A DNA stretch of 7,461 nucleotides. Origin: a virus. Taxonomy: Duplodnaviria; Heunggongvirae; Uroviricota; Caudoviricetes. A model generated the notes under the pieces. It saw only the letters and a program-made list of their open reading frames with translations. It was not told the DNA's origin and did no database searches. The DNA lies in IMG/VR virus record IMGVR_UViG_2534681766_000009, positions 1-7,461 of that record; one strand, 5' to 3'. The first letter of the stretch is position 1; every line of letters begins with the position of its first letter. Shown here one piece after another: positions 1 to 7,461 of the stretch. Made by a program: the position numbers and the translations under genes.

Positions 1-1224
1 ATTGAATTAGTTAAATCTTCAGAAAAAAGAATTGAACCAACGACGACTAAATTAGATAAAATTAAATATATTTGGGAAAAAACATTACCTCACCGAGAGC
101 TTGTTTTAGGCGGTTTAACAATTCAAACACGAGCAAAAGGAAATAACGAGGCTGTCTATAACCCCTCGGAAATGAGCGACGGTGAGCGAGTTATTTTCTA
201 TCTGATTGGGCAATGTCTTGCAGCACCCGAAAATGGAATTATTGTCATAGACGAGCCTGAAATTCATCTTCACAAATCTGTACAAGTTCCATTATGGAAG
301 GATATAGAAAAACTCCGACCTGATTGCCTGTTTGTATATATGACTCATGATACTGATTTTGCTGCAGCACTGCATGATGCAAAGAAAATCTGGTTAAAAA
401 GTTATGATGGTTCCAGTTGGGATTGGGAAGATGTTCCCGATGTCGAAGGCCTACCAGAAAGTTTATTAATTGAAATATTGGGTAGTAGAAAACCAATTGT
501 TTTTGTTGAGGGGGAAAATGGAAGCTATGATGTATCCCTTTATCGTGCTGTGTTAAATAGTTATCTAGTGATACCATCTGGTTCTTGTAGTCAAGTAATA
601 CAAAATGTTAAAGCTCTAAGAGCCAGTGAAAAACTCCATTATATGGAAGTTTTTGGTATTATTGATAGGGATAGACGTGTTGAAAATGAAATTCAATCGC
701 TTCTGGAATACGGTATTTATACTCTAAGCGTGGCTGAAGTCGAAAATCTCTTTTGCGTTCCGGAAGTTATAACTTTAGTTAGCGAACGATTAGTCAGGAA
801 TCCAGATAAAGATCTACAATCAGTTAAAGATTTTGTGTTCCGTAAAATATCCTCAGAGCTGGATACTCAGATTTCACTGCGTGTGGCTGGCGAAATTAAA
901 TTCATGCTTAATTGTTTTGATGAAAAAGCAAAAGGGGTCGATGCTCTTAGTAGAGCTCTTGAGTTGTTGACGTCACAAATTAATGTTAAAGAGCTTTATG
1001 ATGAAAGTTTATCTCTGTTTAATAATGCAGTTGAGAAACGTGATTATCTTCTTGCATTAAAACTTTATAACAGGAAAAGCCTTTCATCCCAAGTAAGTAA
1101 GCATCTGGGGCTGGCTAATGGACAGCTTGCTGAATTAGTGGTCAGGATGGCTAATAATGAAAGTGGAGAGTCAATGAGAAATGCTCTCAGACCATATTTT
1201 GGTGAGTTTTCGGGTAAAATATAG
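1..1224 (+). CDS. 5-prime-partial CDS (about 407 codons in window): C-terminal half of an ABC-type ATPase (AAA_21/OLD-like) fused to a Toprim/DUF4435-like nuclease domain; candidate anti-phage protein (OLD-family or PARIS AriA-AriB-fusion-like)
   Basis: Frame 1 is open from nt 1 to the stop at 1222-1224, so the gene starts upstream of the window. ATPase motifs in order: signature-like SEMSDGER (nt 166-189), Walker B IIVIDEPEIHLH (D at 250-252), H-loop-like YMTHDTDF (about nt 340-360). Downstream Toprim-like motifs: IVFVEGENGSYD (E at 508-510) and GIIDRDRR (661-678), i.e. a Glu then DxD about 50 aa later. AT-rich composition contrasts with the phage block. Walker A is not visible (outside window). 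Confidence 0.7.
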   Translation: MELVKSSEKRIEPTTTKLDKIKYIWEKTLPHRELVLGGLTIQTRAKGNNEAVYNPSEMSDGERVIFYLIGQCLAAPENGIIVIDEPEIHLHKSVQVPLWKDIEKLRPDCLFVYMTHDTDFAAALHDAKKIWLKSYDGSSWDWEDVPDVEGLPESLLIEILGSRKPIVFVEGENGSYDVSLYRAVLNSYLVIPSGSCSQVIQNVKALRASEKLHYMEVFGIIDRDRRVENEIQSLLEYGIYTLSVAEVENLFCVPEVITLVSERLVRNPDKDLQSVKDFVFRKISSELDTQISLRVAGEIKFMLNCFDEKAKGVDALSRALELLTSQINVKELYDESLSLFNNAVEKRDYLLALKLYNRKSLSSQVSKHLGLANGQLAELVVRMANNESGESMRNALRPYFGEFSGKI

Positions 1225-1376
1225 TTATACAGAGTGCATAATACTTATCGTGACTGTGGTTGGATGATGTGTGTGGTTCATGTGTCTGCTCCTCGCTCAC
1301 AGCAGGCTGTCAGATTTGATAGCGTTTGGGCTATGTAAATTGTCAGTTGGAAAATGAGTGAGTGCAAGTCAGGACA

Positions 1377-1405
1377 GGCGGGCGAATTGCCCGCCTTTTC
1401 TTTAT
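1377..1405 (+). terminator. Rho-independent terminator (7-bp GC stem GGCGGGC / GCCCGCC, 5-nt loop GAATT, then TTTTCTTTAT)
   Basis: Perfect inverted repeat 1377-1383 / 1389-1395 followed directly by a T-rich run; lies between the cargo gene and the FI promoter region. Confidence 0.6.
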
Positions 1406-1480
1406 CTGTTGTTTCATCCACTGACCAGACAGGTCAAATAGCGTCTCAGGCACTGCCCAATAGAAAATAGTTGCACCCAT
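1406..1480 (+). promoter_or_regulatory. Putative Ogr-dependent late promoter (P_F-like) upstream of the tail sheath gene, containing a TGACC-N5-GGTCA dyad
   Basis: Position directly upstream of FI start (RBS GGAG at 1487-1490). Perfect palindrome TGACCAGACAGGTCA at 1422-1436. An imperfect TGT-N12-CCA at 1410-1427 resembles the TGT-N12-ACA late-promoter element as I remember it. No convincing -35. -10 and TSS not determinable by eye. Confidence 0.3.
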
Positions 1481-1499
1481 TAACCACGGAGTTAAACGG

Positions 1500-1934
1500 A
1501 TGAGTGACTATCATCACGGCGTGCAGGTGCTGGAGATTAACGACGGCACCCGCGTCATTTCCACCGTATCCACTGCCATTGTCGGCATGGTCTGCACGGC
1601 CAGCGATGCGGATGCGGAAATCTTCCCCCTCAATAAACCGGTGCTGATTACCAATGTGCAGAGCGCAATTGCAAAGGCCGGTAAAAAAGGCACGCTGGCG
1701 GCATCGTTGCAGGCCATCGCCGACCAGTCAAAACCGGTCACCGTTGTCGTGCGCGTGGAAGACGGCACCGGCGAAGACGAAGAAACGAAACTCGCGCAGA
1801 CTGTTTCCAATATCATCGGAACCACCGACGAAAACGGTCAGTACACCGGACTGAAAGCCCTGCTGGCGGCGGAGTCGGTACCCTGGACAATCCGGTCAAG
1901 CGTGGTGAGCAGGTCATCGAACAGGTCACGCTGA
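1500..1934 (+). pseudogene. FI: Truncated tail sheath protein gene (P2 FI family): about 127 native N-terminal codons followed by an out-of-frame 17-codon tail
   Basis: N-terminus [40 protein letters not shown]... matches the P2 tail sheath FI N-terminus as I recall it. Sheath proteins of this family are about 396 aa; here the frame runs into E-derived sequence read out of frame ([17 protein letters not shown]) and stops at 1932-1934. Confidence 0.8.
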
Positions 1935-2286
1935 TGAAACCCAATGCCGGGACGCTGCGCGGTGTCAGTCTGGCTGCGGTCGCGAACTCCGAAGTCGATG
2001 CACTGATTAAGGTGCTGCCGCGCATGACGGCACCGATGCTGACCGAGCAGGAAGTCGCCGCGCTGGAACTGCCTGACCTTGTGGCGCTGGCCGGTAAGGT
2101 GGTCGGTTTTTTGTCGCCGAACTCGGTGCAGTGACGTTCCCGAAAAATCTGTCGGTCGATGACCTGATGGCGGATGTGGCAGTGATATTTCACTGGCCGC
2201 CATCAGAACTATATCCCATGAGCCTGACCGAACTCATCACATGGCGCGAAAAGGCGCTCCGGCGAAGCGGAAACACGAATGAGTAA
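1880..2286 (+). pseudogene. E: N-terminally truncated tail assembly chaperone E with its -1 frameshift extension E' (P2 E/E' family); no native start codon
   Basis: Frame 2 reads [24 protein letters not shown]...GFLSPNSVQ to the stop at 2132-2134 with no ATG before the internal Met at 1934. Slippery T_TTT_TTG at 2107-2113; the -1 frame then stays open to TAA at 2284-2286, overlapping the T start, as in P2 E/E'. Confidence 0.7.
2107..2113 (+). other. Programmed -1 ribosomal frameshift slippery heptamer T_TTT_TTG (E to E+E')
   Basis: Heptamer in the 0-frame of E, seven codons before the E stop; the -1 frame is open for about 58 codons after it. This is the conserved chaperone frameshift arrangement of P2-like and lambda-like tail operons. 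Confidence 0.7.
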
Positions 2287-4726
2287 CAATGTAAAATTAC
2301 AGGTATTGCTCAGGGCTGTTGACCAGGCATCCCGCCCGTTTAAATCCATCCGTACAGCGAGCAAGTCGCTGTCGGGGGATATCCGGGAAACACAAAAATC
2401 ACTGCGCGAGCTGAACGGTCAGGCATCCCGTATTGAGGGATTTCGCAAGACCAGTGCACAGCTCTCCGTGACTGGTCATGCACTTGAAAAGGCACGGCAG
2501 GAGGCCGAAGCCCTTGCCACACAGTTTAAAAACACCGAACGTCCGACCCGTGCTCAGGCGAAAGTGCTGGAATCCGCAAAGCGGGCGGCGGAGGACTTAC
2601 AGGCGAAATATAACCGCCTGACGGATTCCGTTAAACGCCAGCAGCGGGAACTGGCCGTTGTGGGAATTAATACCCGCAATCTTGCACATGATGAGCAGGG
2701 ACTGAAAAACCGTATCAGTGAAACCACCGCACAGCTTAACCGTCAGCGTGACGCGCTGGCGCGTGTCAGTGCACAACAGGCAAAACTTAACGCAGTCAAA
2801 CAGCGTTATCAGGCCGGAAAGGAACTGGCCGGAAATATGGCCTCAGTGGGCGCTGCCGGTGTGGGGATTGCTGCTGCGGGAACGATGGCCGGTGTTAAGC
2901 TGCTGATGCCCGGTTATGAGTTTGCGCAGAAAAACTCAGAATTGCAGGCTGTGCTCGGTGTGGCAAAAGACTCCGCCGAAATGGCCGCGCTACGCAAGCA
3001 GGCGCGCCAGCTCGGCGACAATACCGCCGCCTCGGCAGATGATGCAGCCGGGGCGCAGATTATTATTGCGAAAGCCGGTGGGGATGTTGATGCCATTCAG
3101 GCGGCAACGCCGGTCACGCTGAATATGGCGCTGGCGAACCGTCGCACGATGGAAGAAAACGCCGCCCTGCTGATGGGGATGAAATCCGCCTTTCAGCTTT
3201 CAAACGATAAGGTCGCTCATATCGGGGATGTTCTCTCCATGACGATGAACAAAACCGCCGCCGATTTTGACGGCATGAGCGATGCGCTGACCTATGCCGC
3301 ACCTGTGGCAAAAAATGCCGGTGTCAGCATTGAAGAAACCGCCGCAATGGTCGGGGCGCTGCATGATGCAAAAATCACAGGCTCAATGGCGGGGACGGGA
3401 AGCCGTGCCGTGTTAAGCCGCTTGCAGGTACCGACGGGAAAAGCATGGGATGCTCTCAAAGAGCTTGGAGTGAAAACCTCAGACAGCAAAGGAAACTCCC
3501 GGTCAATATTTACCATTCTGAAAGAAATGCAGGCCAGTTTTGAGAAAAACCGGCTCGGTACTGCCCAGCAGGCTGAATACATGAAAACTATTTTCGGGGA
3601 GGAGGCCAGCTCAGCCGCCGCTGTGCTGATGACTGCCGCCTCAACCGGAAAGCTGGACAAACTGACCGCTGCGTTTAAAGCCTCAGACGGGAAGACCGCA
3701 GAGCTGGTAAATATCATGCAGGACAACCTCGGCGGTGACTTTAAGGAGTTTCAGTCCGCTTATGAGGCGGTAGGGACAGACCTGTTTGACCAGCAGGAAG
3801 GCGCACTGCGTAAGCTCACACAGACGGCCACAAAGTATGTGTTAAAACTCGACGGCTGGATACAGAAAAACAAATCACTGGCGTCAACCATCGGCCTCAT
3901 TGTCGGTGGTGCACTGGCGCTGATTGGTATCATCGGTGCCATTGGCCTCGTAGCCTGGCCGGTTATCACCGGCATCAATGCCATTATCGCAGCAGCAGGC
4001 GCAATGGGGGCAATCTTCACGACGGTTGGCAGTGCCGTTATGACGACTATCGGGGCGATTAGCTGGCCGGTAGTGGCCGTGGTGGCCGCCATTGTCGCCG
4101 GGGCGTTACTTATCCGTAAATACTGGGAGCCTGTCAGCGCATTTTTTGGCGGTGTGATTGAAGGGCTGAAAGCGGCATTTGCGCCGGTGGGGGAACTGTT
4201 CACGCCACTTAAACCGGTGTTTGACTGGCTGGGTGAAAAGTTACAGGCCGCGTGGCAGTGGTTTAAAAACCTGATTGCCCCGGTCAAAGCCACCCAGGAC
4301 ACCCTGAACCGTTGCCGTGACACGGGCGTCATGTTCGGGCAGGCACTGGCTGACGCGCTGATGCTGCCGCTTAATGCGTTCAACAAACTGCGCAGTGGTA
4401 TTGACTGGGTACTGGAAAAACTCGGTGTTATCAACAAAGAGTCAGACACACTTGACCAGACCGCCGCCAGAACTCAAGCCGCCACGTATGGCAGCGGTGG
4501 TTATATTCCGGCGACCAGCTCTTATGCAGGCTATCAGGCTTATCAGCCGGTCACGGCACCGGCTGGCCGCTCTTATGTGGACCAGAGTAAAAACGAATAT
4601 CACATCAGCCTGACGGGTGGTACTGCACCGGGGACACAGCTTGACCGCCAGTTACAGGATGCGCTCGAAAAATACGAGCGGGATAAACGTGCGCGCGCCC
4701 GTGCCAGCATGATGCATGACGGTTAA
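2279..4726 (+). CDS. T: Tail tape measure protein (P2 gpT family), 815 aa, apparently intact
   Basis: Single 815-codon ORF, the length I recall for P2 gpT. Coiled-coil-like Q/R/A-rich N-terminal third and a long Gly/Ala/Ile-rich hydrophobic segment (about nt 3880-4110) typical of tape measure proteins. Start ATG 2279 overlaps the E' stop (ATGAGTAA). Confidence 0.9.
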   Translation: MSNNVKLQVLLRAVDQASRPFKSIRTASKSLSGDIRETQKSLRELNGQASRIEGFRKTSAQLSVTGHALEKARQEAEALATQFKNTERPTRAQAKVLESAKRAAEDLQAKYNRLTDSVKRQQRELAVVGINTRNLAHDEQGLKNRISETTAQLNRQRDALARVSAQQAKLNAVKQRYQAGKELAGNMASVGAAGVGIAAAGTMAGVKLLMPGYEFAQKNSELQAVLGVAKDSAEMAALRKQARQLGDNTAASADDAAGAQIIIAKAGGDVDAIQAATPVTLNMALANRRTMEENAALLMGMKSAFQLSNDKVAHIGDVLSMTMNKTAADFDGMSDALTYAAPVAKNAGVSIEETAAMVGALHDAKITGSMAGTGSRAVLSRLQVPTGKAWDALKELGVKTSDSKGNSRSIFTILKEMQASFEKNRLGTAQQAEYMKTIFGEEASSAAAVLMTAASTGKLDKLTAAFKASDGKTAELVNIMQDNLGGDFKEFQSAYEAVGTDLFDQQEGALRKLTQTATKYVLKLDGWIQKNKSLASTIGLIVGGALALIGIIGAIGLVAWPVITGINAIIAAAGAMGAIFTTVGSAVMTTIGAISWPVVAVVAAIVAGALLIRKYWEPVSAFFGGVIEGLKAAFAPVGELFTPLKPVFDWLGEKLQAAWQWFKNLIAPVKATQDTLNRCRDTGVMFGQALADALMLPLNAFNKLRSGIDWVLEKLGVINKESDTLDQTAARTQAATYGSGGYIPATSSYAGYQAYQPVTAPAGRSYVDQSKNEYHISLTGGTAPGTQLDRQLQDALEKYERDKRARARASMMHDG

Positions 4727-4740
4727 GGAGGTGACGAAAA

Positions 4741-5220
4741 ATGATGCTCGCGTTAGGTATGTTTGTTTTTATGCGCCAGACGCTGCCACACCAGACCATG
4801 CAGCGTGAATCAGATTATCGCTGGCCGTCAAATTCCCGTATCGGTAAACGGGATGCCTACCAGTTTCTCGGCGTTGGTGAGGAAAACATGACGCTTGCCG
4901 GTGTGCTTTATCCCGAACTGACCGGCGGCAAGCTGACGATGACCACGCTCAGACTGATGGCAGATGAAGGCCGGGCGTGGCCGTTGCTGGATGGTACCGG
5001 CATGATTTACGGCATGTATGTCATCAGCAAGGTGAGTGAAACAGGGAGTATTTTCTTTGCAGACGGCACACCCCGAAAAATTGATTTTACGCTGTCGCTC
5101 ACCCGCGTTGATGAATCACTGGCCGCGCTTTATGGCGATATCGGTAAACAGGCGGAATCGCTCATTGGTAAGGCTGGCAGTATGGCGACTAAATTCACGG
5201 GTATGACGGGGGCGGGATAA
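4741..5220 (+). CDS. U: Tail protein U (P2 gpU family), 159 aa, apparently intact
   Basis: 159-codon ORF, the length I recall for P2 gpU, N-terminus MMLALGMFVFMRQTLPHQ. Strong SD AAGGAGG at 4725-4731 about 9 nt upstream. Stop TAA 5218-5220 overlaps the D start (TAATG). Confidence 0.88.
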   Translation: MMLALGMFVFMRQTLPHQTMQRESDYRWPSNSRIGKRDAYQFLGVGEENMTLAGVLYPELTGGKLTMTTLRLMADEGRAWPLLDGTGMIYGMYVISKVSETGSIFFADGTPRKIDFTLSLTRVDESLAALYGDIGKQAESLIGKAGSMATKFTGMTGAG

Positions 5221-6381
5221 TGCTGGATGCGCTGACATTTGATGCAGGCAGTACGCTGACGCCGGATTACATGCTGATGCTCGACAGCAGGGATATTACC
5301 GGCAATATCAGCGACCGTCTGATGAGTATGACCCTGACGGATAACCGGGGCTTTGAGGCTGACCAGCTTGATATTGAACTGAACGATGCCGACGGGCAGG
5401 TCGGGCTGCCGGTTCGTGGCGCTGTCCTGACGGTGTATATCGGCTGGAAAGGTTTTGCCCTGGTATGCAAAGGGAAATTTACCGTTGATGAGGTAGAACA
5501 CCGGGGCGCGCCGGATGTGGTCACCATCCGCGCCCGGAGTGCAGATTTTCGCGGGACGCTCAATTCCCGCCGGGAAGGCTCCTGGCATGACACCACGCTC
5601 GGTGCGATTGTTGAGGCGATAGCCTCCCGTAACAGGCTGGAAGCCAGTGTCGCTCCGTCACTGGCCGGAAATAAAATCCCGCACATCGACCAGTCGCAGG
5701 AGTCTGATGCGAAATTCCTGACCCGTCTTGCAGAACGCAACGGCGGTGAGGTGTCGGTAAAAATGGGAAAACTGTTGTTTCTCAAAGCGGGGCAGGGGGT
5801 GACGGCCAGCGGTAAAAAAATCCCGCAGGTCACCATCTCCCGCAGCGACGGCGACCGTCATCATTTTGCGATTGCTGACCGTGGAGCCTATACCGGCGTA
5901 ACGGCAAAGTGGTTACACACCAAAGACCCGAAACCGCAAAAGCAGAAGGTAAAACTGAAACGCAAAAAGAAAGAGAAACACCTGCGCGCACTGGAGCACC
6001 CGAAAGCGAAACCGGTCAGGCAGAAGAAAGCGCCTAAAGTACCGGAAGCGCGCGAAGGTGAATACATGGCCGGTGAGGCTGACAACGTTTTTGCCCTGAC
6101 CACGGTATATGCCACGAAAGCGCAGGCCATGCGCGCCGCTCAGGCGAAGTGGGATAACTGCAACGGGGGTGGCGGAGTTCTCCATCAGCCTGGCTACCGG
6201 TCGGGCAGATATTTACACGGAAACACCGGTCAAAGTGTCAGGCTTTAAGCGCGTCATAGACGAGCAGGACTGGACAATCACTAAGGTGACACATTTTCTG
6301 AATAATAGCGGCTTCACGACGTCCTTGGAGCTTGAGGTCAGGCTTTCTGATGTGGAGTACGAAACAGAAGATGATGAGTGA
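5220..6381 (+). pseudogene. D: Tail protein D (P2 gpD family) interrupted by a +1 frameshift in a G5 run at 6165-6169; would be 386 aa if one G were removed
   Basis: Frame 3 ORF 5220-6248 (MLDALTFDAGSTL...) continues as frame 1 ORF ending at 6381 (GVAEFSISLATGRADIYTE...EDDE). Removing one G from GGGGG joins them as ...KWDNCNGVAEFSIS..., close to the 387 aa I recall for P2 gpD. Could be a genuine pseudogene or a homopolymer sequencing error. Confidence 0.8.
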
Positions 6382-6399
6382 TGTTTTTGTTTTATCTGT

Positions 6400-6428
6400 T
6401 TGTTTTATAAGGACAAATTAACTAAAAT
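6400..6428 (+). promoter_or_regulatory. Putative sigma70 promoter of ogr: -35 TTGTTT (6400-6405), 17-nt spacer, -10 TAAAAT (6423-6428)
   Basis: Hexamers with canonical spacing in the D-ogr intergenic region, about 34 nt upstream of the ogr ATG at 6462; RBS GAGGTG just upstream of the start. Confidence 0.4.
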
Positions 6429-6461
6429 GGCACCATCAACAAACCGGAAGAGGTGCTCGCG

Positions 6462-6679
6462 ATGTTTCATTGTCCTTTATGCCAGCATGCCGCACATGCG
6501 CGTACAAGCGCTATATCACTGACACGACAAAAGAGCGTTATCACCAGTGCCAGAACGTGAATTGCAGCGCCACGTTCATCACTTATGAGTCGGTACAGAG
6601 ATACATCGTGAAGCCGGGAGAAGTCCACGCCGTAAGACCGCACCCGTTGCCGTCAGGGCAGCAAATTATGTGGATGTAA
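6462..6679 (+). pseudogene. ogr: Late transcription activator Ogr (Cys4 zinc-finger, P2 Ogr/Delta family) disrupted by a 1-nt deletion near 6508-6511; would be 72 aa if restored
   Basis: Frame 3 from ATG 6462 reads MFHCPLCQHAAHARTS then diverges and stops. Frame 2 carries the rest: ...RYITDTTKERYHQCQNVNCSATFITYESVQRYIVKPGEVHAVRPHPLPSGQQIMWM to the stop at 6677-6679. Inserting one C (AGCGCT to AGCCGCT) restores a 72-codon ORF with the C-X2-C-X22-C-X4-C pattern. No single frame currently has all four Cys. Confidence 0.8.
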
Positions 6680-6690
6680 TTACAAACAGG

Positions 6691-6720
6691 AAGCCCCTCA
6701 GTCGAGGGGCTTTCTGTTTT
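6691..6720 (+). terminator. Rho-independent terminator after ogr (9-bp stem AAGCCCCTC / GAGGGGCTT, 4-nt loop, then TCTGTTTT)
   Basis: Perfect inverted repeat 6691-6699 / 6704-6712 followed by a T-rich tract, 12 nt after the ogr stop. Confidence 0.7.
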
Positions 6721-6819
6721 GGGGAATATTCTTCATTAAAAGTAGTGGATCACGTTTAATAAACTATGTTTATCATATACTTAAAAGTAACTTTTTAAAG
6801 TTGGACAGGTTGGTGGAAA

Positions 6820-7461
6820 ATGGAAAAAGTTATAATTGAGCTTGATAATCGTTGGGAGTTAGCTGATTTCGCGGTCTTAACGAAAGAGTATTTGCAGCTA
6901 TATGGTTTTTTTTATGGCCTAAAAGGAGGATCAAGAGGATATTCAACAATGCCTTGGGAGGGTGGGCACAGTGTAGTGAACTTTTTTAGAGGGGCTTACA
7001 GTGCGACTCCACCAGATTTACGTCCTGTAGTGAAAAAAATTCAGTATGCCTCTCCTGGCTTTATTGAATTGTCTGCTCTTATTGATATCTCTTGGCAGAT
7101 TGCTGAGTTAGTTACTGCTGTTGGTGGAAGTATTCTGGCTGCCAACAAAGTTTACGATCAGGTGATGCGTACATATCGACAAAGAGAATGGGCAAAGTTG
7201 AAATCAGAGAAGCTGCGTATACAGAATCAAATTAAAGAGATTGAACTTGTTTCTGACGCAGTTAAATCACTTGAATCTGTGATGGCACTTAGTGAAGAAC
7301 AACGTAAAAACTTGGTTCAACTATCGGGGGCAGATGAACTGGTTCAGTTAAAGATACTTTTGGCTGTTTACCGACGGTTATCTCCTCTTGTTGAGTTGCA
7401 AAACAGCGGGAAAGCTAATTTTTCTGCAGGGAAAAATAAAAATTTAAAAGCGTCCGATTAA
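6820..7461 (+). CDS. Hypothetical protein, 213 aa, AT-rich gene of unrecognised family; C-terminal half looks coiled-coil-like
   Basis: Complete ORF from ATG 6820 to TAA 7459-7461 (the last base of the window). GGTGG RBS-like motif at 6806-6810. Possible -10 TATACT at 6776-6781. Composition and codon usage differ from the phage block. No catalytic motif recognised. Confidence 0.65.
   Translation: MEKVIIELDNRWELADFAVLTKEYLQLYGFFYGLKGGSRGYSTMPWEGGHSVVNFFRGAYSATPPDLRPVVKKIQYASPGFIELSALIDISWQIAELVTAVGGSILAANKVYDQVMRTYRQREWAKLKSEKLRIQNQIKEIELVSDAVKSLESVMALSEEQRKNLVQLSGADELVQLKILLAVYRRLSPLVELQNSGKANFSAGKNKNLKASD

Follow-up and report, generated by a model that had tools for sequence, protein, structure and literature searches.

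A one-base gap in the ogr gene of a P2-like prophage remnant of Escherichia coli 2730350, probably a consensus artefact over two collapsed copies

Cryptic P2 remnants with a working ogr gene beside yegQ/trhP are known in Escherichia coli K-12 and B, and these remnants were reportedly described by Slettan et al. (1992) and by Barreiro and Haggard-Ljungquist (1992). It is also known that collapsed repeats in short-read draft assemblies give rise to consensus errors. The Ogr protein activates the P2 late promoters PP, PO, PV and PF and contains a C4 zinc finger with the motif CX2CX22CX4C (PMC3931495). The ogr locus analysed here is part of a stretch of 7,461 nucleotides, referred to as the window, which is identical to positions 1-7461 of the draft contig APXD01000154.1 (28,721 nt; E. 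coli 2730350, GCA_000356325.2). Features marked (+) are located on the plus strand of the window.

In an alignment with the annotated P2 record the gene occupied the place typical of P2: it follows D, has a promoter of its own and precedes a terminator. It shares this place with the genes of P2 Ogr (NP_046785.1) and OgrK (WP_000468308.1), to which it is 97-99% identical on the DNA level. In contrast to both, the reading frame in the window is split after codon 16 and no single ORF comprises all four native cysteines. Like the remnants of K-12 and B, the element is what remains of a P2-like prophage and has retained its D-ogr end, and its copies in strain 700481 (L003) and in the relative L005 are found at trhP/yegQ, as is ogrK in K-12. 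Unlike them, it is much larger and reaches from portal to ogr, interrupted by internal deletions; it also contains a fused PARIS gene, and in the window it adjoins fieF-type DNA instead of trhP. The evidence presented below favours, with a probability of roughly 70%, that the bases missing in ogr and D are a consensus artefact over two collapsed P2-like copies and that both genes are intact in the cell.

The prophage remnant and its flanks

The window covers the right end of a decayed P2-like prophage with the end of the PARIS gene, a cut sheath gene, the tape-measure gene, U, D, ogr and a terminator; the tape-measure and U genes are intact. The contig begins inside a gene and beyond the window runs into fieF, pfkA, sbp, cdh and tpiA. 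Positions 1-1224 encode 407 aa, which form the C-terminal part of a 537-aa protein, whose whole gene is present in L005 (L005:5112-6725). This protein matched the PADLOC fused PARIS model AriAB with E = 5e-187, as well as the Pfam families AAA_15/AAA_21 and DUF4435. The fused PARIS gene, within which the contig starts, has the tail-fibre assembly gene on one side and the sheath gene on the other, an interval known as the cargo hotspot of P2.

BLAST against the remnant of strain 700481 placed the junction of a 1,417-nt deletion at 1880..1881 (+). It extends from within the sheath gene, whose 3' end is lost, across the whole tube gene into the tail-assembly gene homologous to E, whose 5' end is lost. 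The resulting 144-aa sheath product (ENA76305.1) was also encountered on 11 contigs from other assemblies, and at least ten other assemblies share the deletion. Since the product recurs in this way, the deletion is regarded as real and as an old lesion of the remnant lineage. With a truncated sheath, no tube gene and a tail-assembly gene without its 5' end, the remnant is incapable of building a tail. The sister remnant L010 (Logan ERR054673) has a further deletion of ~2.76 kb, equivalent to window positions 2435-5192, which removed most of the tape-measure gene and U and shows that the remnant lineage is still decaying.

The homology to P2 and to the relatives at the trhP locus stops at 6713. 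This position is the end of the rho-independent terminator of ogr and the F operon (6691..6713, +), which was found as a stem-loop and is homologous to the annotated P2 terminator. It is followed by an AT-rich flank (6714..7461, +; GC 0.38) with a 213-aa ORF (6820-7461). The flank is of the fieF-adjacent and not of the trhP/yegQ-adjacent type. It is normally situated 3' of full P2-like prophages, and the remnant adjoins trhP/yegQ in every relative with a visible flank, including strain 700481 and L005, where intact genes encode a D of 387 aa and an Ogr of 72 aa. At 6713/6714, exactly at the end of the repeat common to all P2-like prophages, the trhP-type remnant is joined to the fieF-type flank, a combination that was absent from 5,426 complete E. 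coli genomes. Either the contig is chimeric, or the join reflects a real, large-scale rearrangement involving two prophages.

The 213-aa ORF (WP_000416606.1) is conserved next to P2-like prophages at fieF, and is located here between the ogr terminator and fieF. It matched PADLOC PD-T4-10_B with E = 1e-34 over only the C-terminal 60% of the profile. No Pfam or PHROG match was obtained for it, and no partner A gene was detected in the window or in L014.

Reading frames of ogr and the missing base

The ogr promoter was transferred by alignment from the annotated P2 record, with the -35 element TTG at 6400-6402 and the -10 element TAAAATG at 6423-6429 (+); a consensus promoter scan of the window did not recover it independently. 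Direct reading of the sequence revealed a Shine-Dalgarno motif, GGAAGAGG, at 6446-6453 (+), eight bases ahead of the ogr start codon ATG at 6462-6464, which aligns with the start of the P2 ogr CDS. At 6440, the leader reads AAA in place of the AAAA of most relatives. This gap was considered as a fourth error and rejected, as strain L725 has AAA as well and the site is thus a natural 5' untranslated variant.

From the start codon, frame A (6462..6560, +) encodes Ogr residues 1-16 with C4 and C7 (MFHCPLCQHAAHARTS), followed by 16 out-of-frame residues (AISLTRQKSVITSART) and a stop codon at 6558-6560, which yields a product of 32 aa. Ogr residues 17-72 with C30 and C35 are encoded in frame B (6509..6679, +), whose translation runs from RYITDTTKERYHQCQNVNC to ...IMWM and ends with the stop codon at 6677-6679; possible starts of this frame are TTG 6470 and ATG 6479. 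Alignment with P2, phage 720R8 and five E. coli loci revealed a single gap column between G6508 and C6509 (+), where the window reads AAG-CGC and the relatives read AAGTCGC or AAGCCGC. The column affected by the gap is therefore itself T/C polymorphic among the relatives. Addition of one C restored a 72-aa protein with cysteines at positions 4, 7, 30 and 35, identical to WP_000468308.1, the OgrK of strains 700481 and L725. Apart from the gap, all differences between this ogr and those of its relatives are synonymous, which indicates that the gene has not decayed further.

A preliminary description, made from the sequence of the window, had proposed a one-base deletion within 6500-6515 that splits ogr, with C4 and C7 in one frame and C30 and C35 in the other, and had stated that one restored C would give a 72-aa Ogr. 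The alignment, the translations and the restored product bear this out. The same description assumed that the downstream frame starts at an ATG at 6470 and lacks C4 and C7, and in this it was mistaken: 6470 is a TTG, the first ATG of the frame is at 6479, and the product from there begins with MPACRTC and has cysteines at positions 4, 7, 24 and 29. The MPACRTC stretch corresponds to the +1 frame of the ogr 5' end (6479-6499), a chance CxxC that the deletion put in frame with C30 and C35. The bases underlying it are invariant in three aligned sequences (window, P2 and phage 720R8).

The profile searches reflected the split of the gene. Against Pfam Ogr_Delta (PF04606), frame A scored 21.8 bits over profile positions 1-15, which is below the gathering score of 26.3, and frame B scored 45.5 bits, above the gathering score, over positions 14-47 only. 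The Ogr with one restored base reached 76.9 bits over positions 1-47 and matched PHROG 603 with E = 1e-28. As deposited, neither frame gave a full-length Ogr_Delta match above the gathering score, and the CX2CX22CX4C motif is distributed over two polypeptides. A search for solved structures of the Ogr family found none, its sole weak match being the NrdR zinc ribbon (E = 0.039).

Gaps on polymorphic columns and the allele mosaic

The window was compared to a panel consisting of the strains 700481, L725 (L012), 22AR0750 (L013) and FLI21 (L004) and of P2. Positions 1-1880 are 100% identical to strain 700481, and within 1881-5837 a single site differs. Downstream of the deletion junction, 4.8 kb of sequence contain 11 substitutions and four one-base gaps relative to strain 700481, and 13 of these 15 differences are located within 5838-6683. 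Unique to the window among the panel are two substitutions, at 2465 and 5838, and three one-base deletions, of which ogr has one and D the others. Gene D (5220..6381, +) is broken by its unique deletions at 6155-6157, where AA(A/G)C became AAC, and at 6168/6169, where GGGG(T/C)GTG became GGGGGTG. With both bases restored, a D protein of 387 aa was obtained whose only difference from that of strain 700481 is T207S.

Both unique substitutions change an amino acid, namely A63S in the tape-measure protein (2465) and the T207S in D (5838). They could be real or further consensus errors, and 5838 lies next to a polymorphic site. The Logan contig L011 (SRR446753), which carries the same remnant and stops at 4076, has a G at 2465, where the window has a T, and gave no link to E. 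coli 2730350.

All three unique gaps fall on columns with natural substitution among the relatives (A/G at 6157, T/C at 6168 and T/C at 6508), and the neighbouring columns are invariant. Of all single-base deletions that are possible, only 3-4% can be assigned to a site at which strains 700481 and L725 differ, and ~8% can be assigned to a site at which strain 700481 differs from at least one of the four other panel sequences. In a probability test devised after the pattern had been seen, the chance of finding three out of three on such columns was 3e-5 for the first set of sites and 5-6e-4 for the second. A consensus formed from two copies would give gaps on sites at which the haplotypes differ, whereas real mutation offers no reason for this placement.

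The alleles around the gaps were assigned to haplotype A, the type of strain 700481, or haplotype B, the type of strain L725. Between 5839 and 6713, the window has no allele other than A or B. The haplotypes differ at 27 sites, of which 24 carry an A or B allele and three are the dropped columns. Their order begins with eight A alleles, B at 6101, the dropped columns at 6157 and 6168, A at 6185 and B at 6231; it continues with five A alleles (6327-6390), four B alleles (6407-6440), the dropped column at 6508 and another four B alleles (6550-6683). This order amounts to five switches between A and B within ~600 nt. From 6407 to 6713, the window is the exact haplotype of strain L725 except for the gap in ogr. 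The mosaic was present in no complete E. coli genome, the best match to positions 5950-6420 being 98.9% identical. The deleted and the intact forms can be told apart by k-mers, which are ACAAGCGCTATATC for the deleted form and ACAAGCCGCTATATC and ACAAGTCGCTATATC for the intact alleles. Further k-mers of deleted forms are GATAACTGC, versus the intact alleles GATAAACTGC and GATAAGCTGC, and CGGGGGTGGCGG, versus CGGGGTGTGGCGG and CGGGGCGTGGCGG.

Over 11.8 kb, the comparison with strain 22AR0750 yielded four gaps, all of them between 6155 and 6508. Relative to this strain, the single-copy host DNA that follows 6714 was free of indels over 7 kb, and the host genes are all intact. Low overall assembly quality was ruled out as the cause of the gaps, given the zero indels in this flank and in window positions 1-1880. 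Four other assemblies of the same remnant end within the tape-measure gene at the recurring points 4076 and 4123. Such breaks are typical of a repeat boundary and suggest, as judged from the contig ends, that a second P2-like element is common in the lineage.

The deletion in ogr was not encountered elsewhere. A 40-mer centred on the ogr junction, for which match seeding was possible only where the deletion is present, had no matches in 5,426 complete E. coli genomes, ~2,070 of them with ogr. Likewise, a 36-mer across the junction had no exact matches in the GTDB representative genomes or in IMG/VR, and the frameshifted ogr peptides were absent from a collection of ~15 billion proteins. In the same collection, the truncated D was found on APXD01000154.1 only. 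The deletions were already contained in the GenBank record, as the D protein of NCBI, ENA76287.1, is the truncated product of 342 aa. This record also ruled out that ambiguity codes were lost in the present data pipeline; their removal before submission is a possible source of the lost columns.

Origin of the missing bases

The window shows the pattern of a collapsed repeat, with errors only where the copies differ, a consensus of mixed alleles, an exit into the flank of the other copy and clean unique sequence on both sides. In the present case, the collapse is proposed from this sequence pattern. We infer that E. coli 2730350 has a second copy of the T-U-D-ogr segment and that a consensus error over the two P2-like copies removed the bases. 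The first copy would be the old remnant, situated elsewhere next to trhP/yegQ, and the second would belong to a P2-like element next to fieF. The assembler would have run through the repeat, so that the contig enters it from the left side of one copy and leaves it into the right flank of the other. At positions that differ between the copies, the consensus would have taken either one allele or the other. At three positions, the alleles may have been placed in separate gapped columns, or an ambiguity code (R/Y) may have been removed later, and in either case the column would be lost. Ogr and D would then be intact in both real copies, the former as a 72-aa protein that activates the P2 late promoters and has a C4 zinc finger.

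Alleles are not mixed in the T and U genes, which are purely of the type of strain 700481. The second copy would consequently have to match the remnant from ~4.1 kb to 6.1 kb and could not be of the L725 type throughout. As a further counterpoint to an artefact, the remnant is already decaying by real large deletions, and another real frameshift in it would not be surprising.

This leads to a possible, though in our judgement unlikely, alternative in which the deletion is real. The codons AGC CGC would have suffered a recent loss from CC to C that turned ogr into a pseudogene, and together with two real frameshifts in D this would be part of the decay of a P2 remnant. The element is indeed a true remnant with real, shared large deletions, and the losses of the sister L010 are still greater, both of which point to a relaxed selection on the tail genes and the activator; the Ogr of the window nevertheless shows no amino-acid change besides the gap. 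The deletion stands in the deposited record and was annotated accordingly, with a truncated D and an ogr gene that was not called, yet a search of other assemblies did not recover it. The single-copy DNA next to it is free of errors, which makes a random sequencing error unlikely and to this extent speaks for a real lesion. Against it stands the location of all three unique deletions on substitution-polymorphic columns, with a chance between 3e-5 and 6e-4. Moreover, three unique indels versus two unique substitutions in 4.8 kb are far from the usual ratio, and the deletions are surrounded by the allele mosaic with its five switches in 600 nt and no match in a complete genome. If the deletion were real, only the 32-aa peptide with the first CxxC would be made, and no activator would be available unless another P2-like or P4-like element supplied one. 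It would then represent an ordinary step of prophage decay in a remnant already unable to make a tail. Nothing new is involved under either of these two main readings, and the restored gene is simply P2 Ogr/OgrK.

With the consensus artefact as the preferred explanation, two claims of the preliminary description have to be revised. It had considered a sequencing error in ogr, as in D. The evidence favours an error, namely an artefact of consensus calling or assembly across two prophage copies rather than a random read error. It had also concluded that the late genes are silent for want of Ogr. This conclusion is not supported, because the deletion is probably absent from the cell, because the remnant is unable to build a tail with or without Ogr, and because the strain probably has a second P2-like element, which would supply Ogr in trans. 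To name ogr and D pseudogenes, or to infer silent late genes, is probably wrong for E. coli 2730350. In general, frameshifts in prophage genes of draft assemblies can originate from the collapse of two related prophages into one consensus, and the warning sign in the present case was that every gap fell on a site where the copies differ.

Other origins of a real deletion appear very improbable. All three deletions could have been caused by patchy mismatch processing in a heteroduplex that arose by recombination between two diverged P2-like copies, where a base removal targeted to mismatches would also leave the A/B mosaic; in a lesser variant, a real deletion would have allowed the MPACRTC stretch from ATG 6479 to rebuild a shortened Ogr with four cysteines.

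Hardly any credence can be given to an ogr that is functional as deposited, either by a -1 frameshift at AGC/GCT or through the 66-aa ORF from ATG 6479 (CX2C-X16-CX4C). Programmed frameshifting was ruled out, as the junction ACAAGCG contains no slippery X XXY YYZ heptamer and the arrangement in two frames occurs in none of the ~2,000 ogr-bearing relatives, which excludes a conserved recoding site. The product of frame B keeps Ogr residues 17-72, has four cysteines and scores above the Ogr_Delta gathering threshold, but this match leaves the new CxxC unaligned, and ATG 6479 is located 25 nt past the native GGAAGAGG without a Shine-Dalgarno motif of its own. The spacing of its cysteines also departs from the family motif, which is fixed as CX2CX22CX4C (PMC3931495). 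A single-sequence AlphaFold2 model of the frame B product, which is weak evidence, had a mean pLDDT of 57.6, with residues 31-40 below 50. In the same type of prediction, the A13T Ogr variant P0005 had a pLDDT of ~80 for residues 1-45.

A search of the window for the Ogr-responsive dyad TGT-N12-ACA yielded no exact copy. The sequence TGTTTCATCCACTGACCA at 1410-1427, located 73-90 nt upstream of the sheath ATG, has one mismatch to this dyad and is probably the PF late promoter element.
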